This document shows positions 398 through 21,143 of a stretch of 64,000 nucleotides of DNA, in pieces. The notes below the pieces were generated by a model. That model searched no databases and had not been told where the DNA came from. It was given only the letters and a program-made list of their open reading frames with translations. The translations under genes were made by a program, and so were the position numbers. Source of the DNA: a virus (Duplodnaviria; Heunggongvirae; Uroviricota; Caudoviricetes); IMG/VR virus record IMGVR_UViG_3300005253_000530. One strand, 5' to 3'. The first letter of the stretch is position 1; every line of letters starts with the position of its first letter.

Positions 398-469
398 AGC
401 CGCTACGAGGACTCGAACCCCGTTCAGAGGTTTACAAAACCCCCGCTCTACCAGGTGAGCTATAGCGGC
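398..469 (-). tRNA. tRNA-Thr (anticodon UGU)
   Basis: Minus-strand cloverleaf GCCGCTA/TAGCGGC acceptor, D-arm TAGCTCACCTGGTAGAGC, anticodon stem GGGGU/ACCUC with loop UUUGUAA, T-arm CGGGG-TTCGAGT-CCTCG; read by eye. Confidence 0.75.
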
Positions 470-888
470 ATTTATTCATAGTCTTCTATGTATATTGTTT
501 TTACAAATGATACTACTTTTGTAGGGTGTGCAGAAAAATCTTTTAATACTTTGTCTTCAGCTACCCTTTCTGCTGCTTCTTCTTCAAAGTCTTCGACTGT
601 AGTGAATGTACTTTCCCATGTTCCGTCTGTAAAACATACAGCCACTTCAACATTGTGTTTTTTATAACCCATAGTAATTCTCCTTATAGTTTGCTCAAAT
701 CTATTTTTGAATCAAACCCTTTGATCATATTGCCTTCAAATATGGCAATAGATTCTTGTCCTAATGCTTTAGCCAATTCTCGTATACTTTGGCCTGCGAG
801 ATGTAATACTTCCGGGTCACCATCGGTCTCTCTTATACATACAACAAAATAGGCTTTTTCTTTTAACATGATGATTACTTTCCTTGTG

Positions 889-971
889 TGCCGATAGAGG
901 GAGTCGAACCCACACGCTTGTTAGGCACTGGTTTCTAGGACCAGCGTGTCTACCAATTCCACCACATCGGC
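889..971 (-). tRNA. tRNA-Leu (anticodon UAG), long variable arm
   Basis: GCCGATG acceptor, GGAATTGGTAGAC D-arm like bacterial tRNA-Leu, anticodon stem CUGGU/ACCAG loop CCUAGAA (C at position 33 is unusual), long variable arm, T-arm GGGTTCGACTCCC. Confidence 0.65.
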
Positions 972-1844
972 TAAATTTTTATTTATACATATCTTTCAGT
1001 TTTTTTAATAGTTTATCATCCTCCATACAATAGGGAGCGTTGAACGGCGTCATGACATTTAATAATAGTTGTACAAGTCTAAGATCGGGATTCTTGTTCC
1101 ATATTCTTTCTATTTCTTTTAGTATCTCTGGTATTCTTTTTGGATCTCTCATTTTTGATCCCCTTAGCTGACATAATTATTTCATCATAATTTTTATCAT
1201 CCGCTATTGCACCAGCAAATTCTCCGCCGATGTCTTCCATCCAATCTCCAAGATCTCCATCCCACATAGTGTTAAAAATATTGTCTTTTTTGTTTCCTTT
1301 TTTACCCACTATAGTTATGTTTACTTTTTTGATCGACATTTTAATTCTCCTTCATTTGAAACTTATTAAACCATTCTTCCAGTGTGTATATAGTTGGTGG
1401 AGATTCAAGCGGCGGGCATCTACCAGGACTAAACATACAGTCGCTAAATTCATGGTAGTAATCGTGAGATGCGAATCTAAGACCCATGAACATGAAATAA
1501 CCTCCTCTATCATACATAGTGCCACGGTTTTTGTAGATAGCTTTTGCCAGCTTCATAAAATCATATAAGCATTTCTTTTTTGATTTATATTCCAGTGGAA
1601 CAGTCATCTGTTCTTTGTGCCCGCCATCAACAACTGTACACCTCATTACTAGTTTCATAATTCTCCTTTATATACCCAGTAGCTTGTTCAATTTTTTAAT
1701 AGCATAATCATATTGACTTACATTTGCTGAGTATTCTGGATTCATAGATCCCATCATGTTTGCACCGTGTATTGCGTCCTTCTTTTCTTTCTTTATTTCA
1801 CGGATCATTGCTAATATCTTCTTTTCCATTTATAATCCTTCCTT

Positions 1845-1917
1845 TGCCAGCTCACGGAATCGAACCATATCCTTGGGTACTTCACGCCCTTATGCGGACC
1901 ACCTACACCAAGCTGGC
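1845..1917 (-). tRNA. atypical tRNA-like gene (good acceptor and T-arm, non-canonical D and anticodon arms; possibly Phe-GAA-like or pseudogene)
   Basis: Acceptor GCCAGCT/AGCTGGC perfect, U8, G18G19 present, T-arm UAUGG-TTCGATT-CCGUG; but D-stem does not pair and anticodon arm forms only GGG/CCC with a 9-nt loop CGUGAAGUA. Confidence 0.35.
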
Positions 1918-1925
1918 TTACATGT

Positions 1926-1999
1926 TCGGAGTAGTAGGATTCGAACCTACGGCCCTCGCGCCCCAAACGCGATGCGCTACCCGACTGCGCTATACTCCG
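1926..1999 (-). tRNA. tRNA-Pro (anticodon UGG)
   Basis: Acceptor CGGAGTA/TACTCCG, D-arm GCGC-AGTCGGGTA-GCGC, anticodon stem TCGCG/CGCGA loop UUUGGGG, T-arm GTAGG-TTCGAAT-CCTAC. Confidence 0.75.
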
Positions 2000-2007
2000 T
2001 TTATTTA

Positions 2008-2085
2008 TGGTCGGGGCGGTAGGATTCGAACCTACGGCCCTCGCGCTCCAGACGCGATGCTCTGCGCAGACTGAGCTACACCCCG
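2008..2085 (-). tRNA. tRNA-Pro-like (UGG) tandem paralog, genomically encoded CCA, atypical D- and anticodon loops
   Basis: Same anticodon stem and T-arm as the neighbouring Pro gene; loop UCUGGAG (C33); D-loop lacks GG; 3' end CGCCCCG-A-CCA encoded. Confidence 0.5.
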
Positions 2086-2856
2086 TTATATTTAACAACC
2101 ATCACCTAAATCTTTAGGATCTATACCATCCTCCCAATGATTATGATGTATGAATTCTATTTCATTTATTCTATGCCCGCCCACTCTATTGTAATCAAAT
2201 CCACCATCAACAAAGGTCTCAGCTGGGCAGCCACAACTTTGAAAATCATGACGGTACATTGAGTGTAATACTTTTTTACACGCTGGACATTTTATTTTTC
2301 CGCCTATAATAATTCTCCTTCCATTTTTTACTCATATTTTTACCACGATGCTCCAGCAGGATATTGTAAATAACATCCACATAGCGGGCATTCTACTTCA
2401 GTTATACTTTGCTCAATATTAAACTCAGTCTTACATTTTTCACAGCATATTTTTGTGCCTCCTGGAATATCATCAACAAAAAGCATATCTCTAACAAAAA
2501 GTATGTTTGGTTTGGTGTTTACTTTATTTGGTAGTCGAGATATTTTAACTTCATCGTGAGCAGATGGGGTTGCTTTTGACATAGCTTCATCAAATGTTGC
2601 AGCTTCCACATACCATGTTCTAACAACTTTAAGTTTAGCCATCCTAATTCTCCTTTTGTCTAGGTTTTTAATAGCTGTATTCTTTGGCAGTTGGCATTTT
2701 CCAAAAGATCAATGATCTCTTCTAGTGCTCTTACTTCTACTGTAGTTACGTCTGTGCCTAATATAGGCATAGCCACGCTTTCCATTTTTATCTCGTTCCT
2801 AATTTTTTCTGACATACTTTTTAATAATTCGATTCTATGCACTGTAATTCCTCCTT

Positions 2857-2929
2857 TGCTCCGACCGGGAATTGAACCCAGCTTTCTGCCTTGAGAGGGC
2901 AGTGTCCTAAACCGATAGACGACCAGAGC
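2857..2929 (-). tRNA. tRNA-Glu (anticodon CUC)
   Basis: Strong resemblance to bacterial tRNA-Glu (TCGTCTA...GGACAC, anticodon stem CTGCC/GGCAG loop CUCUCAA, T-arm CTGGG-TTCAATT-CCCGG). Confidence 0.7.
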
Positions 2930-3340
2930 TTACGATTTTTCAAGACTGCCCTGCAATCTTTGTATTACATGGACAAATCTTCTGTGCATACCATTAAGGG
3001 CTGATTTATACTCAGCGTCAGAATTGTAGTGATTATCTGCATTTAAGCATTTATCTAAGTGTAAGTCTGTGCAAGCTGAATCAAACAATTCTTTGAATCG
3101 TTTTTCTTCTATTTGTATAACTTTCATTTTAATTCTCCTTATAGACCATGCTCTTTTTACATATTGGGCACTCACTCAGTATTTTTTCACAGTTATCGCA
3201 GTCGCCGTGTTCGTCGCTATATGTGTACCCCGCTCCTTGATCCTCATCACAGTAACAATCTGAGACTTCCATCTTATGGTCATTGCCACAATTAACGCAT
3301 GTAATATCAAGAAGTCCTACTGACATGATAATCCTCCTTT

Positions 3341-3366
3341 TGCTCCGACCGATAGACGACCAGAGC
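3341..3366 (-). pseudogene. tRNA-Glu remnant (5' and 3' ends of the 2857..2929 gene joined, about 48 nt internal deletion)
   Basis: tgctccgacc|gatagacgaccagagc matches both ends of the tRNA-Glu(CUC) gene; the upstream RBS/gene-start context (aatcctcctttgctccgacc) is duplicated with it. Confidence 0.6.
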
Positions 3367-3658
3367 TTAATAAATCTTTTACTTTTACCAAATATTTGTT
3401 TCTTCTACATAAAGAACACTTCTAACGGGGATAAGTCTGTCACATGGGTCATCTCCTCCTGTTCCCCATTTTCCTATGACAAAAAAGCCTTGTTTACCCC
3501 ATCCCACTATTTCAACAGGGTCTATATTCCAATTGCGAGACCACTTGCTGCGTCCCCGCGCTTTATGTTTATCGTCAAAATATTGATATCCACAGTTATG
3601 CCTGTTTACCTCTACTTTTTCCCCGTTTATTAGTGTTAGCTTCATAATAATTCTCCTT

Positions 3659-3730
3659 TGCTTCCAGAGGGTATCGATCCCACTTCTGCGGGGTGAAGGC
3701 CCGCTATCCTAGCCAGTAGACGATGGAAGC
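3659..3730 (-). tRNA. tRNA-Glu (anticodon UUC)
   Basis: Acceptor GCTTCCA/TGGAAGC, Glu-type D-arm TCGTCTACTGGCTAGGA, anticodon stem GCGGG/CCCGC loop CCUUCAC, T-arm GTGGG-ATCGATA-CCCTC. Confidence 0.65.
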
Positions 3731-4131
3731 ATCTACTATATAAATGCTATACATATTAATGCGGCTATTATACTAATACCTATAAGTATAACAAGAACGT
3801 CATCAAATCCAAGTTTTCTTGGTTTATCCAATTCGTGAAAAAATCTATAATCTTCTGGATATATCATAATTTCTCCAATAAAAAAGGGATTCAGATTGTC
3901 TCTGAACCCCTTGGTGTTTTCTATGTTTCGTTTGTTTTATCCGGGATGTGGATCCGGATCCACCAAGGGATTTCCAATATGATTATCACGTTCTCTGAGC
4001 AAACTGGTGGCGGGCGTCCCTGTATATATAAATGAGACGGATAAACAACTCGGTTTTTGTTGCCTTAGTATGCTCGAAAACATTGTATCCTCCTTGGTTT
4101 AGTTGGTATTAATTTAGTATTGGTATATTAT

Positions 4132-4275
4132 GGTATATTAGGCCCTTCAGGTTTTCTACCACCACAAGGTTTTTTTGCTCCAGGGTCTGGATCAGTAATT
4201 GGTGGCCTCTTTATTGGTTTTTTTGTTCCATCGTCTGGTTCTTTTCTGTTTATTCTACCACCTCTTGGTTTCATT
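4132..4275 (-). CDS. small basic Pro/Gly/Lys-rich peptide (47 aa), strong RBS
   Basis: Own translation MKPRGGRINRKEPDDGTKKPIKRPPITDPDPGAKKPCGGRKPEGPNIP; preceded by AAGGAGGATACA-ATG; the identical RBS/start context is repeated at 4084 for a second small ORF. Confidence 0.4.
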
Positions 4276-4578
4276 GTATCCTCCTTGGTATTTTAGTGCT
4301 CTTTGTAGCACTCATATATATTATAGAACACAATTTCAATTTTGCTAGATTGTTTTTTGACTTTTTTCAAGAAAGGAGTTTGCCATCCAGCCGGTGTCTG
4401 TGCCAGCTGGACGACTTTGAAAGGAGTAAATCATGAAATAGAACAAATACCAAAACAAAACCAAGGAGTTACACCCCTTGTCACCAAATATTTTTATTTG
4501 GCCCACCCACTAAAATGTTATCCCGTTTTTTGTATGTTTTCTGCCCACCCACAAGTTTAATGTTATAGAGTTATAATG

Positions 4579-5262: not shown

Positions 5263-6075
5263 TTAACCTTCCAGACCAGGAAATATTCTATTCTGATCAG
5301 TGTATTTTTGTATTCTCTTTATGGATCTGTTTGTATAGTCCTCACTAAGTTCGAAGCCTATCCATTGTCTTTCTAAAATTTCTGCTGCCAAACAAGTGGT
5401 TCCCATTCCTGAAAAGATATCTAATACTGTGTCTCCTTTGTAAGATAGCTGTTGTATAAGCCTCTTAGGTAGTTCTATCGGGAACATAGCAGGATGTTCA
5501 TACAGTTCATTCATACGAGATTCAGGAGCAAATTCCCATAAAGCCAGGCTATACTCAATAAACTCTTCCTTACTCACGGTTATATTTTCTTTCCGACCTG
5601 ATTTTTTTTGGCTTCCGTTACAAAATATCAGTATGTATTCAAAAGGGGTTGGAAATGAGGGATTGGATGGTGACTTCCAGCTACCCCACGCTGTTCTATT
5701 TCCTATCTGATTTTTGTTCCATATAATTACGGTCTTTATCAAATACCCCAACTCTTTTGTCATAAACTGAATGATATCTGTATGTGTAGGCACCGCCCCA
5801 TTTTTTCCGTCACCTATGTTTATGCATACTCTGCCGCCCTCTACCATTTTTGGCTTTAGAATGGCAAATATATTACATAGCCATCGTATATATTCTTGAT
5901 GATCTAAGTTATCGTTGTAAAGATCATATGGATTTTTATTGTACTTATTTTTTCCCAGATCTACATTATAAGGGGGACTACAAATAGTTATATCTATAGA
6001 TTCATCTGGTAGTTTGGGGATTAACTCTAAACAATCTCCACAGTGTATTTTATTTATCCAGTTTTGTATCGACAT
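5263..6075 (-). CDS. DNA methyltransferase, beta class (N4-cytosine or N6-adenine)
   Basis: Motif IV SPPY near N-terminus and motif I FSGMGTT near C-terminus (IV...I order). Confidence 0.8.
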   Translation of the reverse strand: MSIQNWINKIHCGDCLELIPKLPDESIDITICSPPYNVDLGKNKYNKNPYDLYNDNLDHQEYIRWLCNIFAILKPKMVEGGRVCINIGDGKNGAVPTHTDIIQFMTKELGYLIKTVIIWNKNQIGNRTAWGSWKSPSNPSFPTPFEYILIFCNGSQKKSGRKENITVSKEEFIEYSLALWEFAPESRMNELYEHPAMFPIELPKRLIQQLSYKGDTVLDIFSGMGTTCLAAEILERQWIGFELSEDYTNRSIKRIQKYTDQNRIFPGLEG

Positions 6076-6950
6076 TATATATATCTACCTCTTTTATCAC
6101 GATTTCTTTGTGCAGTGCCCCAATAGTATTCTAGATATTTGTTATCTATTAGATAATTAAATTTTTTATTCTTTCTTTCCATAAATATAGATGCATCTCT
6201 ATAAATATAATGGTAGAATGAAAGTATATTTTTTTTGCGTGTTAGAATAACATACCACAATTTATTTTTTGCTTTCTTATTCATATAGGGGGTGATTTGG
6301 CAGCCCTCCATACCTTCTCTTACTAGTATTTCTTTTATAAAAGACATAACACTTTTTGTACCAGCTATATTTAATATCGGAGCTGGATATTTAGATCTTT
6401 TTTGATACACAATAGATATACTACCGTCGCCATCAAAATATCCTCTTATAAAATGCTTTTGTAAGTTTACTGGTAATATTGTATCTTCTGGAAATGATAG
6501 TATCAAGGACTTTCTTGGCATACATCCTTTTGATATCAACGCTTTTACTAGTTTTTTGCTACCAATTTCTATTTGATATACATTAGTATTTTTAACAGGC
6601 TTAAATGGGTAATTTGAATTAAGACATTCATTAAATTTTATAAATATATCTTTGTCTCTTTTATGTTGTTTAAATGATAATGAATGGCTTGTGTCTTTTC
6701 TGATTCTTACACACCCATCAGCATATAAAAATCCTAGCCAATATGCTTTATGTTCTGTATTTATAGTTTCAAAATAAGTTTCATCTATTTCATATATTCT
6801 GGATGTATTCATCTCTATTTGATTTGAATACAATATTCTTCTGATAGGTGTTATAGATGTCTCTAGTATTTTGGCTACTTTGCGTAATGATCTACATTCA
6901 TTATATAATTTTATGACCTGCTTTTTATTCAATTCTATTATGGATGGCAT
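6075..6950 (-). CDS. LAGLIDADG homing endonuclease (two-motif, free-standing)
   Basis: Two LAGLIDADG motifs WLGFLYADGCV and FIRGYFDGDGSI; stop overlaps MTase start (TAATG). Confidence 0.8.
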   Translation of the reverse strand: MPSIIELNKKQVIKLYNECRSLRKVAKILETSITPIRRILYSNQIEMNTSRIYEIDETYFETINTEHKAYWLGFLYADGCVRIRKDTSHSLSFKQHKRDKDIFIKFNECLNSNYPFKPVKNTNVYQIEIGSKKLVKALISKGCMPRKSLILSFPEDTILPVNLQKHFIRGYFDGDGSISIVYQKRSKYPAPILNIAGTKSVMSFIKEILVREGMEGCQITPYMNKKAKNKLWYVILTRKKNILSFYHYIYRDASIFMERKNKKFNYLIDNKYLEYYWGTAQRNRDKRGRYI

Positions 6951-7079: not shown

Positions 7080-7496
7080 CTAACATATACCTATTACATG
7101 CCTTTCATCTATATATTTTAGTACACTGGTACAAATTGGACACTTCCAGGGAAACTTATTATTAGTTATGGTCACATAAGCAGCTCCCATGTCTCCAAAA
7201 CCAGTCATAGATTTATCTGTAGTAGCTTTCTTTAATGGGTTTGGGTAATATCTTTTGCTATTATGTTTAGAACATATCCAAAATCCAAAATTTTCATTAC
7301 CAAATATATTTTTCATAACTTTAGATGATATACTGGCTATATCCATTTTACTAGCACATAGGTGACAAAGCTTATCTTTGTCAAGTTCTTCTAATGAAGT
7401 AAAAATACCTTTCAGATAACCATTCATGTGTTCTACTTTAAGGTAGGCATTACACTTTATGCATTTATATTTTACTAGCATTGAATTTAATAACAT
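7080..7496 (-). CDS. Cys-rich zinc-finger protein, hypothetical
   Basis: Multiple CxxC pairs (CIKCNAY, CHLCASK, CPICTSV). Confidence 0.5.
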   Translation of the reverse strand: MLLNSMLVKYKCIKCNAYLKVEHMNGYLKGIFTSLEELDKDKLCHLCASKMDIASISSKVMKNIFGNENFGFWICSKHNSKRYYPNPLKKATTDKSMTGFGDMGAAYVTITNNKFPWKCPICTSVLKYIDERHVIGIC

Positions 7497-7511
7497 TTAT
7501 TACCCCCGCAA

Positions 7512-7548
7512 GGTGTGGGTGGGGGAGTTGAACCCCAACCCCCACACC
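7512..7548 (-). other. GC-rich tRNA-minihelix-like hairpin (acceptor-like 8-bp stem + T-arm-like TTCAACT loop), probable tRNA remnant
   Basis: GGTGTGGG..GGGG-TTCAACT-CCCC..CCCACACC; a second orphan T-arm (ATTGG-TTCAAGT-CCAAT) lies at about 7573-7600. Confidence 0.4.
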
Positions 7549-7700
7549 CCTTGCTGACATGAAAAAGCAATTGGACTTGAACCAATGACCGCTTACTAAG
7601 TATTCTCGCCAATACAATTTCCAACATTAACTTTTCAGCAGCTCTACTCTTCTGAGACTTACACTTTTCCTATATGAACTCTACAATGAGCAGAGTTTTG

Positions 7701-8102
7701 TTATAATTTTCGAGTGAATCCTTTGAGAAAAAAATCTCGGTTAGAATTATCGCAAGTACAGTTTGTGCTGTTCTTTATAACTGTTGCGACATTTCCACCT
7801 TCGATATATCTCTTTGTTAAATATCTATATTGTGACCACGATCTGCCACAATCTTTGCAGTACCAATCGAGTTCGTATCTATATCTGATATCTGTTGAAG
7901 AGATTGGTGTAGCTAGTTTCATTTCTGCGTGACGAACTACTGTCTTTGCTTTATGACATGTTGTACATGTATCCCCGACATGGTGTCTAATATTTTTTTC
8001 ATATACTTTTTCTATTTTTTCATGTAGTCCATAAACAGAATAACTTCCTGTTTTACCACATCCGTTACATATATATTGTACTATCATATCTTTTATTATC
8101 AC
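7701..8102 (-). CDS. Cys-rich zinc-finger protein, hypothetical
   Basis: CNGCGK, CTTCHK, CKDCGR motifs. Confidence 0.5.
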   Translation of the reverse strand: MIIKDMIVQYICNGCGKTGSYSVYGLHEKIEKVYEKNIRHHVGDTCTTCHKAKTVVRHAEMKLATPISSTDIRYRYELDWYCKDCGRSWSQYRYLTKRYIEGGNVATVIKNSTNCTCDNSNRDFFLKGFTRKL

Positions 8103-8449
8103 GGTAGGTCTTCCTTGCTCATATATGCTTCTGATTCTTTCATAGCATCTATTTCATGTTGCACTTCTTCCATATCATCTTTCATTTGTCTGCGAGCTTT
8201 AGCTGTAGCAATGTGCTTTCTTATTGTGTTGACTACGTGATTAAACAACTTTGGATTACCATTATAGAATAACCTGAGGTTTACATCATCTATTTTTTCT
8301 GGATTTACTTCTATGTTCTCAAGCTTTTCATCTACTAATCCTGATTCTTCTTCTCTAATAGATTCTTCAGCAAACCCCATGATACCACCCAATATTGCAG
8401 CATCTTGTATATCGAAGTCTCCATCATTATCAAAATCTAAGAAGCTCAT
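8099..8449 (-). CDS. acidic hypothetical protein
   Basis: 116-aa ORF, start overlaps upstream gene. Confidence 0.45.
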   Translation of the reverse strand: MSFLDFDNDGDFDIQDAAILGGIMGFAEESIREEESGLVDEKLENIEVNPEKIDDVNLRLFYNGNPKLFNHVVNTIRKHIATAKARRQMKDDMEEVQHEIDAMKESEAYMSKEDLP

Positions 8450-9422
8450 GATACTCTCCTATTATTTTCGGTGGGGCTATTTCGAACTTGACGATTAAGG
8501 TACGTTGCTTTTCCCTACTATAATTTCAGTACTTCCCTTCACCCGTACGCCCATGTTCACGCTTATCCCCAAACGCTTTAAAAAATATAAATATCCCGCC
8601 CCTAGCCCACTCGATCTCAATCCATGACACCACTCAATCAAATCAACGAGCTGCTACCCTCATTGGAATGAAACAGCACATACTAACGGCAAGTTACCCC
8701 GCTTTCTAGTATTAAGGTGTCGAATCATTATTGACTAAAATTTATTTAGGGACGCTCCTAGTCGTTATACAATAGATCATCGGTAGCGATAATAGAAAAC
8801 CGTTAGGTGTTCCGCACGATATCCTCCCAATTGTAAATACGTCCATCTTATATCTAATTTATTGTTTTACCTACATCTATAATGTTCAAATCACGGACAA
8901 CTCTCATTAAATCATCTTTTTCCTTTACTTTCATCACGAGATCTTCAGCCTTTGCAAGAATCATGGTAAGTATTTCTACTCGTCTATGAGATTCTAAAGC
9001 TTTAGAACACATTTGATGTTCAGGATTCCATAAGTCACAATAGTTTAAGGCACATTTATCACCCTTCATGGCTACACAAATTCCACTTCCATCCATAGCT
9101 TGCTCCTTACCAACTTACGCTGATTAAATAGTTTCCTGCTGGAATCTCTCCTTTTTTACATAAGTAACACAGCAGCATTCCAGTTTCATGGCAATCCCAT
9201 TTTTTTATTTCGAGCACTTTTTCCATCTCCTCTTCGTCCCACTTGTCTAACTCAGGCTCAACAGTTATACTCTTTTCCGAATCATTACTCATCTCCTCGG
9301 CTGCGACAAACTCATATTTTGGATCAAAACTGAATCTTTCCGTGAGAAACTCATCTAAGTCCCAACAGCTCACCTCAAGATACTTTTTTGTAGTTATTTT
9401 TAGCTTCATACTACTTTTCTCC

Positions 9423-10790
9423 CTATTTCAGTGCTGTGGATAAATATTTAGACACTTCCTCTATAAGAACGTCTCTTTGGTTCATCGATTGATCCTCTAT
9501 TACTATAGATAATAAATAGTTTAGTATATGACCTATAGTAGGACCAGGCTTCAAATTGAATTCTTCTATGAGTACGGTGCCATCTATATTCAGATCTTTA
9601 ACATGTAGCACTCTAGATTGATTATAGACTTGTTTTATACGTTTCTCAAAAGATATTTGTCTCGGTGATATTTCACTGAGATTTAGACCATTTGCTGCTC
9701 TGTCAGCTTTTCTTAGTAAAAATACTGGCATACGGCTTAGCTTTTTTATTTCTTTGTTCGAGATATGTATTTTAGCTATAAATCTGCGAACTGCTGCATC
9801 TGACCACCTATTAGGCTCATAGTTGTACATATGATTATATATTAGGTCAGATACTACTAATGCCATTTCTTTGTCGAATTTTAACCTTCTTAGTATGCGC
9901 CTCGCCATTTTTGCGCCGGTGACTTCATGATTATAGAACGTTACTTTATATTTGCCTCCTCTTACAACCTCTTCTCTTACCTGTGGCTTGCCGACATCAT
10001 GTAATAAAGCTGCTAATCTCAATACCAAGTCTCTTTCGGCATTACCACAAGCTGTTAAGCAATGAGTTAATACATCATATTTATGATATTTCCTGTTTTG
10101 TGTTACCCCGTCACATATACTTAGTTCAGGTATGATCATATGCATAAGACCTGAGTCGTGCATTGTTCTCAGATATTTTGAAGGCTTTTGGCTCATAACT
10201 ATTTTTATGAACTCAAATTTTATTCTATTTATAGATACTTTCTTTACTAATGCATGGTTTGATTTAATCGCATAAAATAAATTGCTATCTATTCTGTAAT
10301 TGAGGTGTGCTGCCAGCGACAGAGTTTCCATCATAATAGCTGGATTTTGTTTCGTAACTAGATCTGCCTTTCCAATGACTTTAATTTTTCTGTTCCGAAT
10401 ATCGTTTCGACCACGATAAATGTCTATAAGACCTTTTGGGCCTTTTGATGCTATAGGTAGATACATCGCATTTACTGTAAATGCCTTTTCTTTTGCATCC
10501 TCCTTTAATGTGAAATATGGACTATATTTACCTCTTTTCTTTGGATTCCGTATAATGAAATTTATGTCATCTGTGGAAAACGAGATACATCCCTTTAACT
10601 TCTCTATTTTTAGATTTTTACGATGCCGGCGTAAATATTTTGATACTGTTTGTAATGATATTTGTCTTACTACTATCTCTATTTTGGTGGACTTTTTTCG
10701 CCTCACAAGATTACAAACGTATCTGCCTGCATAATATATTTCAGCCGGAGTCTCCTTGTTTAGTTTCTTCAGTATTGATATTATTTTCAT
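9423..10790 (-). CDS. CCA-adding-enzyme/poly(A)-polymerase family protein with HD domain; head-domain catalytic motifs degenerate
   Basis: Class-II NTase body motifs FTVNAMYL, DIYRGRNDIRNRKIKVIG, ETLSLAAHLNYRID and HD motif LLHDVGKP; but GGxxRD...DxD replaced by AGRYVCN...KIEIV. Confidence 0.65.
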   Translation of the reverse strand: MKIISILKKLNKETPAEIYYAGRYVCNLVRRKKSTKIEIVVRQISLQTVSKYLRRHRKNLKIEKLKGCISFSTDDINFIIRNPKKRGKYSPYFTLKEDAKEKAFTVNAMYLPIASKGPKGLIDIYRGRNDIRNRKIKVIGKADLVTKQNPAIMMETLSLAAHLNYRIDSNLFYAIKSNHALVKKVSINRIKFEFIKIVMSQKPSKYLRTMHDSGLMHMIIPELSICDGVTQNRKYHKYDVLTHCLTACGNAERDLVLRLAALLHDVGKPQVREEVVRGGKYKVTFYNHEVTGAKMARRILRRLKFDKEMALVVSDLIYNHMYNYEPNRWSDAAVRRFIAKIHISNKEIKKLSRMPVFLLRKADRAANGLNLSEISPRQISFEKRIKQVYNQSRVLHVKDLNIDGTVLIEEFNLKPGPTIGHILNYLLSIVIEDQSMNQRDVLIEEVSKYLSTALK

Positions 10791-11604
10791 GTTTTATACG
10801 CGCTCCGTATTTTTTCACAAGTAAATCTTTCAGATTTTGTATTCTTATATGTAAAGTTGATGCTTCCACACCAAATGGGCCGCTTAGCTCTCTTTCAGTT
10901 TCTCCACCTACATAATGTCTGTACAATAGGTCGTAATCTTCCTCTGATAGACTTTCTTTTATTTCTTTCACAAACACAATGTTGGAGAAGGCTGAATCAT
11001 CTGTTGTGGCTGTTGCGGCTATGGTGTCCAGATTGGTATAAATTATTTCAGGAAAGGATACTGGAGAGAGCTCCGCACGCTCTAATAATTGTATAACTGA
11101 AGTATGAGATCTGTCAGCTAAATTTTGAATACTTTGCTGTATTCTGATAACATCCTCCATAAGAGATTCTTTGTTTTTTGGAGGATTGTCCTTATAATAT
11201 TCGGAAGCTGTCCATATATCTACAAAAGTTAACCGTCTAAGACCATCCATTTTTTCTAGAACTTTTTGTAGTGATTCTGTTAGATTTGCTGCATTCTTTA
11301 CATATTGAGGTATCTTTATATTGCTCCCTTGCGTGGTTATGTACTCACGAAGAGCGTCCTTGATTTTATAAATAGCATAAATTCTAAACTTCTCACTTCT
11401 TTCCCGCTCGAAATCTCTATAGGCTCTCGCCAAGCCGATTAGACCCTCCTGGCGCAGGTCTTCCTTGTCTACACCGGTAATAGCTGAAAGTTTATTTGAT
11501 AGAAAGCTGATGTCTTTCTCGTATTTTTTTAATAACTGTTCGGCCTGCTCCTTAGTATCTGCGAGAAAGTGCTTACTAAAAACTTCACCGTCACGTATTG
11601 GCAT
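10741..11604 (-). CDS. sigma-70 family RNA polymerase sigma factor
   Basis: Region 2 DLRQEGLIGLARAYRDFERERSEKFRIYAIYKIKDALREYI and region-4-like C-terminus. Confidence 0.8.
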   Translation of the reverse strand: MPIRDGEVFSKHFLADTKEQAEQLLKKYEKDISFLSNKLSAITGVDKEDLRQEGLIGLARAYRDFERERSEKFRIYAIYKIKDALREYITTQGSNIKIPQYVKNAANLTESLQKVLEKMDGLRRLTFVDIWTASEYYKDNPPKNKESLMEDVIRIQQSIQNLADRSHTSVIQLLERAELSPVSFPEIIYTNLDTIAATATTDDSAFSNIVFVKEIKESLSEEDYDLLYRHYVGGETERELSGPFGVEASTLHIRIQNLKDLLVKKYGARIKHENNINTEETKQGDSG

Positions 11605-12081
11605 GTTAACTCTCCTTTAGTTAAGTTGTCCTTTTATATTTGCTATAGTATTTAATATCTATAAATCATTTTTATGTTAGCCTGCCTCCTTTCTGCAACA
11701 TATCATATATAATACCGGAATAAATCAATTCTTCTCGTTCTGTCAATGGATATTTGTTAAATTTCTGTGCATTTAGGGGTGCTTCTAGTATTTGTAGGTT
11801 ATCTTGATGGTGTAAGCCCCCTTTACTAAGAGGAAGAATATGATCTATAACATATTTTTCTTTTTCAAGCTGTGTTCCTTTTTTTGTTCCGAATTATTAA
11901 TATAATATTTACTATTATACTCTGGATTATTTTGGTGCCATTGCTTCACATATTTACTTCTACAGTGCCTACACTACGAATTCCTGCGGCCCTTACTTTT
12001 ATTCCGCCAACTAAATTCCTCTATATCCTTTTCCTTTTCACACTTAGTACATATTTTTCTCGTCATGGTATATTATTAATA

Positions 12082-13125
12082 TTACATCTCCCTATCAAAA
12101 TTTCTTGGAATATCTACATAATCTCTTTTTATGGTTGATTTTATATGTCCATTATCGAGTAAATATTTTCTACCTTGGTCTGTTATTTTCCTTCCTTTTG
12201 GTGCTCGAAGAATTAGCCCTCGTTGTATAAGATATGGCTCCATAGTTTCAGATATAACTTTTGGTGACTCATTCAGTCGTACAGCTATGTTATCCAGCCC
12301 TATAGGATCTTCAACTTCGTACATCATTTTTAGCATACTAATATCTGTACTATTTAGACCGGTTTTATCAATTCCAAGCTCGCTGAATGTTACTATAGCT
12401 ACATCAGAGGTGACAGCCTCCCGATCAATAGCTGCAGCCATATCTCTACACCTTTCAAGTAAGCTGACCACAACCCTTGGTACTCCTCTGCCTCTCTTTG
12501 CGATTTCCAGTGCAGCTTTCTCGCTTATTTTCATTTTTAACCGCTCTGCATGTACAATAGCTATTTGTATAGACTCTTCTTGTGAATATGGCGTGAATAC
12601 AAATCGCATTTTAAATCTATCTCTAAACGGCTTACTTAACTTGCCGTCATTTGTAGTAGCACCTATTAGTGTAAATGCAGGGCTCCATCGTGTTCTTTCT
12701 GTAGCATCATTAAAAATGTCCAGTGGATCAGATTTCATTTCTCGACTAGTTACTGGTATATACCATTCTTCCATTAATACGCCCATATGTTCTTGGCCAG
12801 CCAGTGACAGGTTGTGTATTTCATCTATAAATATTATATTATGCCGGATACACTTGTCTTTCAGTTTTTTGCCGTATATATCATACCCAGTTCGATCGAA
12901 CTCTTCCACTATCTGTAATAGATCGGATCTACCTTTAATAGAATCACAGGCCACACTCGCAAATTTACCACTAGTTATATCGGCGATATATTTGGATGTA
13001 CTAGTTTTTCCACACCCAGCAGCTCCGCTCATGAGCATATGTGGTATTGATCTGTTTTCTTTGATAGCGGATTTTATAGCAATGTCTATCTGTACAAGAA
13101 TACCTTTATTACCAATCAATTTCAC
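12082..13125 (-). CDS. ruvB: RuvB-like AAA+ ATPase (Holliday-junction branch-migration helicase family)
   Basis: Walker A LMSGAAGCGKTS, Walker B IIFIDEIHNL, C-terminal winged helix ISETMEPYLIQRGLILRAPKGRKIT matching RuvB EPYLIQ..RTPRGR; GTG start with GAGGT RBS. Confidence 0.75.
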   Translation of the reverse strand: MKLIGNKGILVQIDIAIKSAIKENRSIPHMLMSGAAGCGKTSTSKYIADITSGKFASVACDSIKGRSDLLQIVEEFDRTGYDIYGKKLKDKCIRHNIIFIDEIHNLSLAGQEHMGVLMEEWYIPVTSREMKSDPLDIFNDATERTRWSPAFTLIGATTNDGKLSKPFRDRFKMRFVFTPYSQEESIQIAIVHAERLKMKISEKAALEIAKRGRGVPRVVVSLLERCRDMAAAIDREAVTSDVAIVTFSELGIDKTGLNSTDISMLKMMYEVEDPIGLDNIAVRLNESPKVISETMEPYLIQRGLILRAPKGRKITDQGRKYLLDNGHIKSTIKRDYVDIPRNFDREM

Positions 13126-13168
13126 GTAAGTACCTCACTTTTTTAGAATTCTACATATATTATAGAAT

Positions 13169-14408: not shown

Positions 14409-15494
14409 TCACATGTCTCCCCTCATTAAGGCGGCTATTACGGCTTGTGCTTCTTCATCATTACGAACATTACGCATAACTCTGGTCATACCGCCATTAG
14501 GAGCCTCATCTGCTACTGCTGCACCAACCGCTCGGCCCCGTCTTGCTGCAGGCGCCGGTCTTGCTGCAGGACGTTCTTCTCTAGCAGGAGCCTCAATTTC
14601 ATTGATCTTGGCCCGGAATGCTTCCACATATTTCTGTAAAGCTGTTCCTTGTAGACCGGGGCCGCTGTTGATCTCGATAAGATAAGGGTTATTGTCCAAT
14701 CCAATTGCGCAATCGACCGCACCAAAGTCCAAACCGGTAACTTCTACGGACTTTATGGCCATAGCCTTCAATGCGTCTGAAACATTATTTAACGTGACGC
14801 CGGAAAACTTCCATCCCCTTTTGTTGCTTCGGACTATACGATCTGGCAGTTCAGCTTCCTTCACTAACAGGCTAAGAACATAATTCAAAGTGGATTCATC
14901 CAGATTTTGATTATTTTTCTGTGCATAATCTAGCACTTTTTCTTTACGCTGTGCGATCCAGCCGGCATCGGTCGGGTTTTCAACCTTCTTTACTGCATAT
15001 ATAACCTGACCAAAAGCCACATGGAGCCGATATTCGTCTTTGATGTCAATATAGTTCTGAAAATACTGGGCACCGTCATGAATGGCTCTTTCAACATGTT
15101 GCTTATTTAAACATGTCCAGAATCCTTTACCGCCCTGGTGAAAATTTGTGCGACCAACAAGCGGCAATTTGATGTCACTTCTCCGCCGGTCCATTGCAGC
15201 TATGACCTCATCAGCTCCGCAAAAGGCTGAGATAGCCGGTTTTGTCGCTCGATTTCCATACAAAGATGTCAATGTACTCATTTTGTTCCGGTTGTTTCGA
15301 ATTTTATCCGGGTGATTAAGTATGGTTGCGTTATCCAAACGTACAGCCGCATCTGTCTTGGCTCCCCATCCGATTATGATATCACCATTTTGGATACTCC
15401 GGGGCTTTGACTTTGTACCAGTTAATCCCAATGCGTCCGCTAAAGCCTGGCCGGTTACATCAGTTGCTCCACTAAACCAAATATATTTTGACAT
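14409..15494 (-). CDS. ATP-grasp ligase (RimK/alpha-L-glutamate-ligase-like) with GC-rich Ala/Arg/Pro-rich C-terminal tail
   Basis: ATP-grasp motifs EYRLHVAFGQV, GLDFGAVDCAIGLDNNPYLIEINSGPGLQG; last about 60 aa PAREERPAARPAPAARRGRAVGAAVADEAPNGG encoded by locally GC-rich DNA. Confidence 0.75.
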   Translation of the reverse strand: MSKYIWFSGATDVTGQALADALGLTGTKSKPRSIQNGDIIIGWGAKTDAAVRLDNATILNHPDKIRNNRNKMSTLTSLYGNRATKPAISAFCGADEVIAAMDRRRSDIKLPLVGRTNFHQGGKGFWTCLNKQHVERAIHDGAQYFQNYIDIKDEYRLHVAFGQVIYAVKKVENPTDAGWIAQRKEKVLDYAQKNNQNLDESTLNYVLSLLVKEAELPDRIVRSNKRGWKFSGVTLNNVSDALKAMAIKSVEVTGLDFGAVDCAIGLDNNPYLIEINSGPGLQGTALQKYVEAFRAKINEIEAPAREERPAARPAPAARRGRAVGAAVADEAPNGGMTRVMRNVRNDEEAQAVIAALMRGDM

Positions 15495-15764
15495 GTTATT
15501 TCTCCTTATTTTAATAGGTTAAAATCCCTTTCTACTCCACTCCTCCTATTTAGCTACCACCGTGTCTATACTGACAGGCGCTGTGACAACCGCTGTTATC
15601 TCGTCTTTTGCTGGGTTTGCAGTCATGGTGACAAAAGACTGACTATTAGGAAAGCTATAGCGTGCCTCAATATACTCTGCTATAGCCTGCAAGATATTAT
15701 CGTTCGTCAAAGTAAATATAGATTTCTCTTTATTGCCTAATAGTTCCATGTTATTCCCCCCTTG

Positions 15765-17108
15765 TTATATTATGAAATTACTATTACCAACCCATGTGTG
15801 CTTCAATCCTTTCTCCCTTTCATTCAGCACATTCTGAGGTAATCTAACTACCTCTATAAATTTATCTATATAATCAGCATACTCTCTGTATGTCTGTAAT
15901 GACCTGTATCTTGACTTTAGCTCATCGAAATAACTTTTTCTGAATTCTATTTCCCATTTATGTAATATATTTTGCATAGCTCCAGAGCTAGAAGTAGTAT
16001 TAAATGCCTTTGTAATTTCTATATTCTTCCATTGATCAAAAGACATATCGAAGAAAGTCAAATCAGTGTGGGCATACCAATCATCGGTCTCTTGGTGTTC
16101 TTCGGTCATAATCAAAGAATGCTTAAAATTACCATCTTCTAAGGCTCTAAAATATGCGTGAGCTATAGCTTTTACTGTGCCTATGACTATTCTGGCCAGT
16201 TCTGGATGAGTTAACCACTCACCACTTAAAGTACGATACTCTAATCTATTATGATCAGTCTTGTGATCTCCAAAGCGACCAAATGACTTTCTACGCTTCA
16301 TTCCATTCTTTTTACCATCAAGCTTCATCATTGGTACAGCTACATAATCGTCTAATATTCTTTGTAGACACGCGTACACTGCGTGTGAGTAATTACTACC
16401 AAATGAACTTATCTTTTGAGCTAAATTTGCTGGTGTCCCTAAATGTATGTGGCCTCCAACAGGCCAGTCCCTTCGACTGTTGTCAGGATCCGCACCCGAT
16501 TCATGCCCAGAATGGTTACACCCACCGACCCATTCATACAGAGCTATTAACTTTGTATTAGGGTGATTTGTTAGTATGCCATGTATATTACTTACAAAAT
16601 CTTCTACTAGTATCGCAGGCTTTGGCCTTAGTTCAGCCAATGGCCCGTCTGATCCGAGCTCGTCATTATGACTCAGATTATTTACTTTTGATGCATACAT
16701 TATGTTACCATCCTTATTAAATAACATAAACTCAGGGTCACCGCCTACTACTGTGTCCTCAACTGTATCTGCTAACCATATATTCTCTTTACTCCCGCTA
16801 CCGTTCTTACAGACATAGCTAAATATAGTAGAAGTTACAAAACCAACCCTTTCAAAATCGTCAGCACTCATAGATTCTTTAGCTTTTTTTAGATCTGAAG
16901 AGTAAGCTTGGAATATTTCGAGACTTTTACTTCTGTTTATTCGTCCATTTGTATCAGTATTAGGCCATACCTCTACAACTTTTTCATCAGCTAGCCCAAG
17001 ATTTTCTCTAGCTTTTACTCCTAGTCTGATCAGACCGTTTTCATTCCTATCATTCTTTCTGTTGGAATCCATTCGGTCTGATATGACTAATATTAATGGA
17101 GCTTTCAT
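15765..17108 (-). CDS. GCS2/glutamine-synthetase-like carboxylate-amine ligase (amidoligase), paralog B
   Basis: GGDPEFMLFNKDGN ... GSDGPLAELRPKP ... GGHIHLG; shared with 22726..23928 and 41042..42268. Confidence 0.6.
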   Translation of the reverse strand: MKAPLILVISDRMDSNRKNDRNENGLIRLGVKARENLGLADEKVVEVWPNTDTNGRINRSKSLEIFQAYSSDLKKAKESMSADDFERVGFVTSTIFSYVCKNGSGSKENIWLADTVEDTVVGGDPEFMLFNKDGNIMYASKVNNLSHNDELGSDGPLAELRPKPAILVEDFVSNIHGILTNHPNTKLIALYEWVGGCNHSGHESGADPDNSRRDWPVGGHIHLGTPANLAQKISSFGSNYSHAVYACLQRILDDYVAVPMMKLDGKKNGMKRRKSFGRFGDHKTDHNRLEYRTLSGEWLTHPELARIVIGTVKAIAHAYFRALEDGNFKHSLIMTEEHQETDDWYAHTDLTFFDMSFDQWKNIEITKAFNTTSSSGAMQNILHKWEIEFRKSYFDELKSRYRSLQTYREYADYIDKFIEVVRLPQNVLNEREKGLKHTWVGNSNFII

Positions 17109-17120
17109 ACGTCATCCCTC

Positions 17121-18944
17121 CTAACTTTTTGTTTCTTTTGCTTTCTTAATGACTTCTTTTACCTCTTTAATCATTTCTTGTTCTCGGGTATTAAATACTT
17201 CTGCTATTTTATCCATGTTCACTGAAATGTCACTTCCAGACACTGCGTTAAACAGTCTGGCTCTTGCACTAAGATTTTGGCCCTTTCCATTGCTAATACT
17301 TGAAGTCACATCATAGAATTTTGCAAGTGCTAGAACCATAGACTTCAATCCAGCTATATGACTTTCTCTGCGTTTAGATTTCTCGTCGTCAGCTGAAGAT
17401 GGGCCTTCTGATTTTTTCATAGCTGTTTCATATCCGGCCATGAACCCGTCCTTCCAGTTGATATTGAATGCTCTGTTGGCTACCATAACTATGCCAAGCT
17501 GTTCGGCTTTCTTCTCATTTTGAATATCTATAGCAGAAATAAGATCTTCCATGTTCCCATATCCCTTTTTATCTATAGGCATGTCAGTATATGCATTAGT
17601 AGCAGCTTCTATAATCTCTTTGGGATATTGCTTCATGTTAACTTCAGTTACTTTGATATCTTTTTCATCTATATCTATGACTTCATCATCTGATCCTTTA
17701 TTCTCAGTATATGTTGTTTTGTCATCGATATCCACCGAAGAGTCACTATCTTTTTGCTCAATAGTATCCTTGTCTCCATCATCAGTGTCTGATTTTTTAT
17801 TAGCTATTATCATTGCTGTTGTAGTAGATCCAGTGGTTGTATTCTTTACTGTTTTGACCTCGTCAGTATCTACAGATATAGCAGCAGACTCGTCATCTTG
17901 TATTTCAGTATCTCCAATTTTTACTACATACTTTTTCGTAATCTTATCAAATACTCTACGTGTTGGTTCTTCCTTTTTCTCATCGGGTTTATTATAAGAG
18001 TACGGCTTACCGTAATTTTTACCGGTGCTATATGTCGTAGCAGTTGTAGCTATCCATATTTTGCTACTTCGCTCTATTTTACTCCACTCACCTAGGTCAT
18101 CAATGGTAGTATCTTCTGTAACCTGCTGAGTCAAATCAAATATCATAGCGGAATCATCTGGCAGACTTTTCTTTTCAACAAGCTTTTTATTGAGAAAGGT
18201 TGGTAGATCCGAACCACAAAGCTCAGGATAATATCTAGGCCATCTTACATATCTGAAATGTATTTTATTCCAGAACTTTTCTTCAGATATTATTAGTAAT
18301 ATACCGTATTCTTTCAGCAGCACAAATTCTACAGGGCGACTATCACGAAATATTGGTACTTGATATGGGTTATCAGCATTGAACAGGGAGATTGCAAACT
18401 GACCATCTAGTCTATTTACTATATTTTGTATCATATTCATAGTAAATGGCTCTTTGCCACAGTTCGTGTAATGATCAAATAGCCTGAATATTGCTTCACT
18501 GTCTACTTTTCCATCTCGTTTGCATCCAAGCTTTTTGAATATTTCATCTGGATTCCTAATCACTCCATTATGAATGCCTATTAAATTACCAATTTTGATA
18601 GGGTGATTATTTTCATTGTCTTCTTTATCACCGGCTGTAGCAGCTCGACAATGTCCCAGAAAAATTCTACTAGGGGCTTTATGTTCTCTCCACACTTTTA
18701 ACAGGCTGCCGTACCATTCTTTCGATTCACCAAACATAGATAAGTAATCAGTGGCTCGTTGGCCTCTTTTTAATCCCATATATTTGCCATCATCGAACAA
18801 TATGGCTGCTCCTGTGGCATCTTTGCCTCTTTCTTCGGTGGCTATCAGCAGTTCGGTTGTGAAGTATTGCATTACCCCTTGCCTTACGATTTCGTCCTTT
18901 TCGCTTAATTTGCCGAATGCCAGTGCAACTACTATTCCGCACAT
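17121..18944 (-). CDS. class-II glutamine amidotransferase (Ntn, N-terminal Cys) with long low-complexity C-terminal extension
   Basis: MCGIVVALAFG N-terminus (catalytic Cys2), GHCRAATAG, Gn_AT_II-type core; Thr/Asp/Ser-rich linker then C-terminal domain. Confidence 0.7.
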   Translation of the reverse strand: MCGIVVALAFGKLSEKDEIVRQGVMQYFTTELLIATEERGKDATGAAILFDDGKYMGLKRGQRATDYLSMFGESKEWYGSLLKVWREHKAPSRIFLGHCRAATAGDKEDNENNHPIKIGNLIGIHNGVIRNPDEIFKKLGCKRDGKVDSEAIFRLFDHYTNCGKEPFTMNMIQNIVNRLDGQFAISLFNADNPYQVPIFRDSRPVEFVLLKEYGILLIISEEKFWNKIHFRYVRWPRYYPELCGSDLPTFLNKKLVEKKSLPDDSAMIFDLTQQVTEDTTIDDLGEWSKIERSSKIWIATTATTYSTGKNYGKPYSYNKPDEKKEEPTRRVFDKITKKYVVKIGDTEIQDDESAAISVDTDEVKTVKNTTTGSTTTAMIIANKKSDTDDGDKDTIEQKDSDSSVDIDDKTTYTENKGSDDEVIDIDEKDIKVTEVNMKQYPKEIIEAATNAYTDMPIDKKGYGNMEDLISAIDIQNEKKAEQLGIVMVANRAFNINWKDGFMAGYETAMKKSEGPSSADDEKSKRRESHIAGLKSMVLALAKFYDVTSSISNGKGQNLSARARLFNAVSGSDISVNMDKIAEVFNTREQEMIKEVKEVIKKAKETKS

Positions 18945-18946
18945 AT

Positions 18947-20188: not shown

Positions 20189-20200
20189 TTACTACCTCCA

Positions 20201-21130: not shown

Positions 21131-21143
21131 AAAAGTATTTCTC

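Follow-up and report, generated by a model that had tools for sequence, protein, structure and literature searches.

A putative new family of multi-domain structured RNA in a clade of uncultured marine-sediment phages

Introduction

Only few large, intricately folded RNAs without known function have been described, and these have proved productive; ROOL has a size of about 580 nucleotides (nt) and GOLLD of more than 800 nt. Both are encoded by phages and prophages, often near tRNA islands, and combine a conserved core with a variable part, and in GOLLD it is the 3' region that is conserved and the 5' region that varies (PMC12286853). ROOL and GOLLD form RNA-only nanocages (PMC12286853), and the tRNA gene region of phage T4 gives rise to RNAC and RNAD, two phage RNAs of unknown role (PMC3014915). 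Here we describe an intergenic island at 8450..8853 of a 64,000-nt stretch of viral DNA (IMG/VR record IMGVR_UViG_3300005253_000530, Caudoviricetes), which is the window of this study. A first-pass annotation, made from the letters of the window, had pointed to an island of about 400 base pairs (bp) between two minus-strand genes as a candidate structured noncoding RNA, and the position holds, as 8450..8853 is covered by neither gene. The comparison with related genomes shows that the island carries a predicted minus-strand, multi-domain structured RNA of about 390 nt (235–603 nt in relatives), which is confined to a clade of uncultured marine-sediment phages, and that this RNA belongs to no catalogued RNA family.

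Like ROOL and GOLLD, the island RNA is phage-encoded and large, it has multiple helices and may, as they do, contain a pseudoknot, it is located in the vicinity of a tRNA island, and it has a conserved core with varying peripheral modules. It differs from them in being smaller, in having its variable part at the 3' end, in the lack of a match in Rfam, and in sitting between protein genes, tight against a ribosome-binding site. We know of no counterpart in ROOL or GOLLD to the invariant G-rich segment of 24 nt, here called the 24-mer, that is found in the island RNA. The T4 RNAs RNAC and RNAD are about 120–140 nt, much smaller than the island RNA. They offer a looser analogy, one that fits a neighbouring tRNA-like RNA better than the island RNA itself.

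Conservation of the island in related phages

The island is limited by the UAG stop codon of a gene for a protein of 80 amino acids (aa) on the 5' side and by the start codon of a gene for a 116-aa protein on the 3' side. No Pfam or PHROG function was found for either of the two flanking proteins, and AlphaFold gives the 116-aa protein a helical model of low confidence (predicted local distance difference test score, pLDDT, 63). The 116-aa protein has 13 homologs of 47–100% identity. Identical copies of the island are present in L001–L007, which come from marine-sediment metagenomes (PRJNA259156, JGI 3300005663; NCBI protein name LCGC14_...), and syntenic homologs in L008, L011/L012, L014, L015, L018, L021, L029 and L032, with partial ones in L017, L019 and L027. 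A 24-nt block from the first alignment was used as a pattern for a metagenome scan, which added L017–L019 and L021. Two further candidates turned out to be chance matches to the G-rich 24-mer, L020, which is a high-GC bacterial gene, and L028 (Pseudoclavibacter), the only match of the DNA pattern in GTDB. No relatives were found among deposited phages (INPHARED, near and distant DNA similarity), in IMG/VR (protein, alignment and DNA-pattern scans) or among the GTDB representative genomes. The comparison covers about 10 distinct sequences in 4–5 lineages, all from sediment metagenomes, and one of the relatives is located on a 270-kb scaffold.

In all syntenic relatives, whose 116-aa proteins are 47–87% identical to that of the window, the homologs of the 80-aa and the 116-aa gene are likewise separated by a gap, of 235 to 603 bp. 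The shared gene order is a RuvB-like gene, a sigma-like gene, a CCA-adding-type enzyme, a 100-aa gene, a gene of about 80 aa, the gap and the 116-aa gene, after which come two Zn-ribbon proteins and a DNA methylase. An extra Zn-ribbon open reading frame (ORF) of 56–66 aa lies between the RNA and the 116-aa homolog in three relatives (L015 3834..4004, L018 2755..2934 (locus minus strand), L026 324..524).

Measured in 50-nt bins, the identity of the closer relatives to the window is 0.80–0.98 in the 5' and central domains of the RNA, which is at least as high as in the flanking genes, and 0.24–0.56 in a hypervariable stretch, Px, nearer to the 3' end. The 5' and central parts are as conserved as the adjacent coding DNA or more so, among relatives whose proteins are down to 47–62% identical. 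The first-pass annotation had named the absence of any conservation, or a conserved protein gene, for instance a frameshifted one, as evidence that would speak against an RNA. The first is contradicted by these identities, and no conserved ORF was found in the homologs. There are at least seven stop codons per sense frame in the island, and at least five in each sense frame of the homologs (n=9). The longest stop-free stretches of the homologs are either non-homologous or run in differing frames through the conserved block, and the length differences and indels are not multiples of three. Two small reading frames were considered and rejected. A peptide beginning AUGGACGUA... would be 34, 10 or 6 codons long depending on the homolog, and the AUG at its 5' end is UUG in L029; an antisense ORF through the 24-mer has different frames in different homologs. 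A protein gene in the island, even a frameshifted one, is thus excluded on the evidence of the reading frames, given the stops in all frames, the non-homologous stop-free stretches, the non-triplet indels and the change from AUG to UUG in L029.

Structure of the RNA

The 5' domain is closed by the helix P1 (Table 1). Its interior of about 85 nt contains P2 (UACAAU/AUUGUA), a short extension and the hairpin P3, and the segments GAGGA and CCGAUGAUC are conserved and single-stranded. Across the alignment, 92.8% of the cells of this domain pair, as compared to 34–52% when the partners are slid along each other, and 4 pairs have changed on both sides. In L018 the entire interior of P1 is replaced by a loop of 7 nt (UUGACG-UGCGUAG-CGUCAA), and the outermost pair of P1 is changed from G:C to U:A.

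The central domain is a three-way junction in which P5, a long-range helix of three segments (GAUUC/GGAUU, GACACC/GGUGUC and UUAA/UUGA), encloses the hairpins P6 and P7. Here 90.7% of the cells pair in alignment A6 against 29–46% with the partners slid, and 12 pairs have changed on both sides against 0–2 in the controls; these observed values were reached by none of 500 shuffles, which are controls and not to be read as probabilities. The pair counts are conservative, since the MAFFT alignments misplace some of the helices of L014 and L015, and the helix table of lineage-specific stems was curated by hand. L015 builds P5 from entirely different sequences (UGUCU/AGACG, UGCUUC/GAAGCA and UCAA/UUGA), and its P6 (UACUAAU/AUUAGUA) and P7 (UAGUUGG/CCAGCUA) are kept as helices with other sequences. 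L014 also builds P6 and P7 from different sequences. The segment P5a and the 3' hairpin H hold 1–3 G.U pairs per sequence, equal to A.C mismatches on the antisense strand. That these pairs are valid on the sense strand only implies that the sense strand is the one that folds. The idea of a structured noncoding RNA transcribed together with the minus-strand genes is well supported by syntenic conservation, by the lack of a conserved ORF and by the compensatory base-pair changes that the alignment with related phages contains in several of the helices.

The 3' module of the main clade consists of the hairpin H and a proposed pseudoknot, in which the loop GGGG of H (8567..8570) pairs with CCCC at 8473..8476, beyond Px. 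The two partners can pair in 11 of 11 sequences, one of them with a mismatch (L012, GGAG/CCCC, uncompensated), and there are two independent double changes, GGGA/UCCC in L021 and GAGG/CCUC in L032. Px itself has a conserved base, UGA/UCG, and a stem that differs between lineages, UGAAC/GUUCG in the window, UGAGUA/UACUCG in L008 and L029, UGAGUGCAA/UUGCACUCG in L011, UGAGUAUGAU/AUUAUAUUCG in L017 and UUAGUAGAAC/GUUCUACUUG in L027. Behind it comes the conserved tail, which in 12 sequences reads CCCC, UCCC or CCUC, then A (11 sequences) or G (one), then CC, CU or CA, and then GAAAA. The distance from the tail to the Shine-Dalgarno sequence of the downstream gene is 13–14 nt in all 12 main-clade sequences, 13 nt for the RNA of the window, and the Shine-Dalgarno sequence lies outside all conserved helices. 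In L015, L018 and L026 the hairpin H and the pseudoknot module are missing, and a ribosome-binding site, here that of the small Zn-ribbon gene, again comes right after the RNA. The length variation of the RNA is thus found at the tips of helices, with the P1 interior absent in L018 and the Px interior ranging from 6 to about 100 nt.

A tertiary contact is conceivable between GGUAG in the loop of P7 and CUACC of the 5' domain. L015 has a compensatory combination, GGUGG/UCGCC, the two are mismatched in L029 and L032, and both are absent together in L018. We regard the contact as suggestive only. P7 was also the sole match of the terminator scan, and we rejected it as an intrinsic terminator; its U-tail is not conserved, being A-rich in L014, L027 and L015.

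The G-rich 24-mer

The most constant part of the sequence is directly 3' of P5. Every homolog that can be aligned has a 24-mer that fits GAGAYCGNGTGGGNNAGGGGYGGG, even L015 and L018 with their flanking protein of only about 47% identity, and four of its positions tolerate change. It is single-copy in the window even when 3 mismatches are allowed, and a covariance-model search gave one copy only, which implies that the element is not a repeated promoter or terminator motif. No partner in cis that covaries with the 24-mer was found; the candidate pairings fit the substitutions but get no support from them. Pairing with the 3' tail (UAGCCCCAC) was rejected, because the tail varies (UAACCCC, UAUUCCC, UCGACCUC) while the 24-mer is constant. 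Pairing with the 3' strand of P1 (CGUCCCUA:UAGGGGCG) is possible in most sequences, with no compensatory support and with two mismatches in L018, and to see a switch in it is speculative.

Table 1. Positions in the window of the island RNA, its parts and the adjoining features.
Feature	Position	Strand	Remarks
Candidate structured RNA, whole intergenic island	8450..8853 (404 bp)	minus	RNA position i = window coordinate 8854-i
Upstream gene, 80-aa Cys-rich protein	8854..9096	minus	directly 5' of the RNA in every relative
5' domain, closed by P1 (GGACG 8840..8844 / CGUCC 8750..8754)	8750..8844	minus	RNAalifold and pair counts
A-rich linker UAAAUAAAU, P1 to central domain	8740..8748	minus	nearly invariant (alignments A2, A6); also in L015, L018 and the diverged L026
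Central three-way junction P5/P6/P7	8619..8726	minus	pair counts, MAFFT alignment A6
Hairpin P6, loop GGUAACUUG	8681..8711	minus	
Hairpin P7, loop GGUAGCAG	8644..8665	minus	
G-rich 24-mer GAGAUCGAGUGGGCUAGGGGCGGG	8595..8618	minus	directly 3' of P5
A/U-rich linker	8577..8594	minus	U-rich in most homologs, A-rich in L014, L027
Hairpin H (GCGUUU/AAGCGU)	8559..8576	minus	90% of cells paired vs 35–57% slid
Hypervariable hairpin Px, conserved base	8484..8558	minus	interior unalignable between lineages
Conserved 3' tail CGAAAUAG-CCCC-A-CC-GAAAAUAAU	8461..8483	minus	holds the pseudoknot 3' strand 8473..8476
Shine-Dalgarno sequence AGGAG of the 116-aa gene	8456..8460	minus	
Downstream gene, 116-aa acidic helical protein	8099..8449	minus	start codon ATG 8447..8449; query for finding relatives
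Second conserved ORF-free gap, tRNA-like RNA	7497..7700	minus	GC 44%; two genes downstream of the island

Comparison with known RNA families

Searching the window against Rfam 15 with cmscan at gathering scores gave no match in the island, and at E≤10 for 7400..9000 and E≤1 for six related loci only tRNAs and chance-level matches appeared. The models of ROOL and of GOLLD, the latter covering its conserved 3' core, had no match in the window, in 7400..9000 or in the six relatives, and ARAGORN found no transfer-messenger RNA (tmRNA) in the window, where it called 7 tRNAs, or in the relatives. A phage location near a tRNA island, as for GOLLD, is seen here, with 7 tRNA genes on the same strand at 397..3731, 4.7 kb off. 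The identities that the first-pass annotation had offered, GOLLD, ROOL, a group I or II intron, tmRNA, RNase P RNA or 6S RNA, all remained without a match to the Rfam models. The hunch of a structured RNA was right, and the named families were wrong.

The individual candidates fail on other grounds as well. The lone Rfam match to a tmRNA fragment (12.5 bits) is a T-loop at 7522..7536, in the neighbouring gap and not in the island. The look-alikes of bacterial RNase P RNA, GAGGA... and GGGUGAAGGGAAG, are short or lie inside the non-conserved interior of Px. The flanks of the island are complete, separately conserved genes, and it is not an intron, since the flanking ORFs are independent in all relatives, each with its own stop or its own Shine-Dalgarno sequence and start. 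By-eye motifs (kink-turn, T-box boxes, conserved regions of RNase P, hammerhead core) were not consistent across the homologs.

With T-box and riboswitch leaders the RNA shares its position directly before a ribosome-binding site, a multi-helix domain closed by P1 and the possibility of alternative pairings between G-rich segments and a C-rich tail. It differs from them in that the Shine-Dalgarno sequence is not sequestered and the module nearest to the gene is dispensable in L015 and L018; no model of this kind matched, and there is no terminator or antiterminator. H-type pseudoknot 3' modules and tRNA-like structures of the tymovirus type have in common with the 3' module a hairpin loop and a downstream C-rich tail, behind which come a purine and in many cases CC; if loop and tail pair, the topology resembles that of an acceptor arm with a pseudoknot. 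In the island, by contrast, the tail is internal and continues from R-CC, R-CU or R-CA into GAAAA and the gene, there is neither a T-loop motif nor an encoded terminal CCA, and the support for the pseudoknot consists of two compensatory events.

A neighbouring tRNA-like RNA

The second conserved gap of Table 1 has homologs in L008 (4765..4973), L011 (4738..4969), L014 (4723..4988), L015 (4725..5008) and L026 (1248..1485). Its RNA takes the form of a tRNA-like cloverleaf. An acceptor-like stem of 9 bp stacks on the T arm (AUUGG-UUCAAGU-CCAAU), a D-like hairpin is small, the 'anticodon' stem carries a variable insert of 43–90 nt, and then follows a long hairpin capped by a second T-loop. Of its cells, 95% pair, as compared to 49–57% with the partners slid, and 9 pairs are doubly changed. 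Neither ARAGORN nor Rfam calls it a tRNA or a tmRNA, and a weak match to the Tymo_tRNA-like model is found in this gap only (7498..7582), not in the island. The RNA ends just before the Shine-Dalgarno sequence of a 138-aa gene.

The tRNA island (minus strand) has seven genes, among them two adjacent genes for tRNA-Pro(UGG) and genes for tRNA-Glu with the anticodons CUC and UUC; both tRNA-Glu genes are also present in the relatives. Two paralogous class-II nucleotidyltransferases of the CCA-adding/poly(A) polymerase type with HD domains are encoded at 9423..10790 and 54822..56192 (minus), and in the one near the island the head domain gives a weak match only. The pair could be split CC-adding and A-adding enzymes, or have a diverged function.

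Function of the RNA

The best explanation as a whole, to which we assign a probability of roughly 0.5, is that the island encodes a structured RNA of a new family that serves as a scaffold presenting the 24-mer. The first part of it, a conserved structured RNA of a new family, is very probable from the comparative evidence. The RNA would be co-transcribed with its flanking genes, as the upstream stop codon is too close to P1 to leave space for a promoter. The scaffold may then consist of the 5' domain with P1, the P5/P6/P7 junction and the 3' hairpin-pseudoknot, and it would display the 24-mer to a protein or to another nucleic acid as its partner. In that case the polycistronic transcript would release the RNA as a stable species, alone or as a ribonucleoprotein, much as for the other RNA genes nearby. 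Such a role in trans is put forward tentatively, at not quite even odds. It is favoured by the size of the RNA and by the peripheral modules that are gained and lost around a fixed core, and also because the core persists when the gene-proximal module is lost and because the neighbourhood is RNA-centred, with 7 tRNA genes, the tRNA-like RNA at 7497..7700 and two CCA-adding-type genes. An RNA acting in its own right is therefore ranked as most likely, above a simple on/off leader.

Several observations weigh against the explanation as a whole. The RNA of the window is thermodynamically no more stable than its shuffles, with worse folding than these on both strands (z = +1.75, and z = +2.18 for the other strand), and the comparative structure lies about 11 kcal/mol above the minimum free energy. 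The thermodynamic signal is uninformative here, and the comparative evidence overrides it. The covariation statistics, in turn, come from few independent events, because there are about 10 distinct sequences in 4–5 lineages, and the pseudoknot is not significant when compared to shuffles. The 24-mer is lost in the most diverged relative, L026, and a search of the window for a target in trans, by exact complementary words and a duplex-energy scan, gave nothing convincing. The scan for consensus promoters and terminators was uninformative, and no promoter or terminator marks the ends of the RNA. Finally, the fixed spacing between the tail and the Shine-Dalgarno sequence fits a cis-acting leader at least as well.

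Such a leader is the main rival, if distinctly less likely than a scaffold. The RNA would then be a long 5' untranslated region through which a bound protein or metabolite controls the translation or stability of the gene behind it, which is the 116-aa gene or, in L015, L018 and L026, the Zn-ribbon gene, with the 3' pseudoknot beside the ribosome-binding site as the expression platform. Besides the constant distance in the main clade, the conserved GAAAAUAAU between tail and Shine-Dalgarno sequence speaks for this, as does the ribosome-binding site that follows the RNA directly also in L015, L018 and L026. No terminator-like site is found between RNA and gene, the sole match being the internal P7 with its non-conserved U-tail. 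The C-to-U changes of the tail furthermore stay wobble-compatible with the G runs of the 24-mer, which makes an alternative pairing conceivable. However, the Shine-Dalgarno sequence is in no conserved helix, and of all parts it is the gene-proximal 3' module that L015 and L018 have lost or replaced, the 24-mer and the upstream domains being kept. The size and the number of domains are also far above those of most leaders, and neither a riboswitch nor a T-box matched. It is improbable that the RNA is a module for RNA processing or stability, that is, a tRNA-like or pseudoknotted punctuation mark directing cleavage of the transcript by RNase P, RNase Z or RNase E, possibly with CCA addition by the enzymes of the phage, or else one that protects the 5' end of the downstream mRNA. 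This would leave the large conserved 5' and central domains and the 24-mer unexplained, L015 and L018 do not have the module, the evidence for the pseudoknot is thin, and T-loop and encoded CCA are both wanting in the island. What recommends it is that the CCCC tail is always followed by a purine and CC, CU or CA, like a discriminator base plus trailer, that the adjoining gap 7497..7700 has a true tRNA-like fold and also ends just before a Shine-Dalgarno sequence, and that two CCA-adding-type enzymes are encoded.

If the 24-mer acted as DNA, it would be a protein-binding site, for instance an origin of replication, a site for packaging, or a promoter used by the sigma-like factor or the RNA polymerase of the phage, and the conservation around it would be incidental. 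An invariant block of 24 bp is typical of such sites, and the phage encodes sigma-like and RNA-polymerase-like proteins, yet we consider this very unlikely. Compensatory changes, and G.U pairs that only one of the strands can form, indicate RNA, a single copy in 64 kb is no general promoter, and there are no iterons or AT-rich unwinding repeats, nor does the cumulative GC skew turn here. It is hardly credible that the RNA is a diverged member of GOLLD, ROOL, tmRNA, RNase P RNA, the group I introns or the T-boxes, considering the failure of the covariance models even at the permissive thresholds (E≤10 in 7400..9000 of the window, E≤1 in the six relatives), the absence of an ARAGORN call, and flanks that are complete genes and not exons. 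The phage-encoded location 4.7 kb from a tRNA island is as usual for GOLLD and ROOL (PMC12286853), and a few short stretches look similar by eye (GAGGA..., CCGUUA, GGUAAC, and GGGUGAAGGGAAG in the Px of the window), but these are either not conserved across the homologs or located in the hypervariable Px. A decayed gene remnant or a neutral spacer without function would agree with a sequence no more stable than its shuffles; it is effectively refuted by compensatory substitutions and by a conservation of the 5' and central parts that equals or exceeds that of the adjacent coding DNA. A further reading, which we think unlikely, is that the island RNA and the tRNA-like RNA at 7497..7700 form a joint phage RNA system of a new kind, acting on tRNA or translation. 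The island RNA could then be an ornate machine, of RNA only or as a ribonucleoprotein, and possibly catalytic or self-assembling like ROOL and GOLLD, with the 24-mer as its active or recognition site and a pseudoknotted 3' end matured or tagged by the pair of CCA-adding-type enzymes.

As a structured RNA of a new family, the island RNA would extend this group of RNAs by one more family, unrelated to the others and coming from large sediment phages of a lineage not sampled so far. Its invariant segment of 24 nt, for which no cis partner has been identified, is a concrete handle in the search for a partner, and the 235-nt version of L018 is a natural 'minimal' form suited to structural work. Seen beside the tRNA-like RNA, the two CCA-adding-type genes and the tRNA island, it suggests that these phages have a module centred on RNA. 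The interest would be modest if the RNA is only the leader of a small gene, and greater if it is a self-standing machine linked to the tRNA-like RNA.

Composition of the island and other features of the window

The compositional grounds on which the island had been singled out stand only in part. The claim that it has no ORF of at least 60 codons is correct for 8499..8853 on both strands, but a plus-strand ORF of 61 codons (8313..8498), antisense to the 116-aa gene, enters its edge by 49 bp. The GC content, estimated by eye as about 45% against a background of about 30%, is indeed elevated, but the contrast is about 41 to 37 and unremarkable alone: the island has 41.3%, the window a mean of 36.9% (standard deviation 3.6%, 404-nt windows) and the 1-kb flanks 35.4%. 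The richest 200-nt stretch of the island reaches 46%, and one in ten windows of 404 nt is at least as GC-rich as the island. The GC argument behind the idea of a structured RNA is thus weak, and more striking than the GC content is the skew of the RNA-sense strand, with 26% G and 15% C. Genes were also said to abut or overlap everywhere else, which is wrong. The window is a phage-like run of genes on one strand, with all long ORFs on the minus strand, and it contains 16 stretches of at least 120 bp without a minus-strand ORF of at least 60 codons, for example 7497..7700, 11605..12081 and 47124..47587. An ORF-free stretch of 400 bp at 37% GC looks like any non-coding DNA, and the observation is ordinary alone; the island has significance only because it is conserved in related genomes, which a reading of one sequence could not see.

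Further stretches of at least 240 bp without a coding-strand ORF of at least 60 codons are 3646..4578, which holds a tRNA-Glu gene, 28606..28848, 42981..43279, 47124..47587 and 59952..60209. Apart from that tRNA-Glu, no Rfam family was found in them at gathering score. Another such stretch, 11605..12081, is an AT-rich spacer of 477 bp (31% GC) between the RuvB-like and the sigma-like gene (10741..11604); it has no Rfam match, the JGI gene caller has an odd 'gene' of 30 aa spanning 415 bp there, and in the relatives, which are without the spacer, the two genes abut. A plus-strand ORF of 332 codons (12131..13129), unusually long at 37% GC, is antisense to the RuvB-like gene (12082..13125).

A LAGLIDADG homing-endonuclease gene at 6075..6950 (minus) is situated in a stretch of low GC (26–29%). 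It is absent in L008, L011, L014 and L015, where the 138-aa gene adjoins an N6/N4 DNA methylase gene, and it looks like a recent mobile insertion. A protein of 1163 aa, encoded at 29513..33004 (minus), combines signatures of RNA polymerase beta (Rpb2 domain 6) and beta' (Rpb1 domain 2) in a single chain. Finally, three paralogs of the phiEco32-like COOH-NH2 ligase are encoded within 14409..23928 and 41042..42268 (minus), and they are accompanied by a glutamine amidotransferase and by an ATP-grasp protein of the RimK-like kind.

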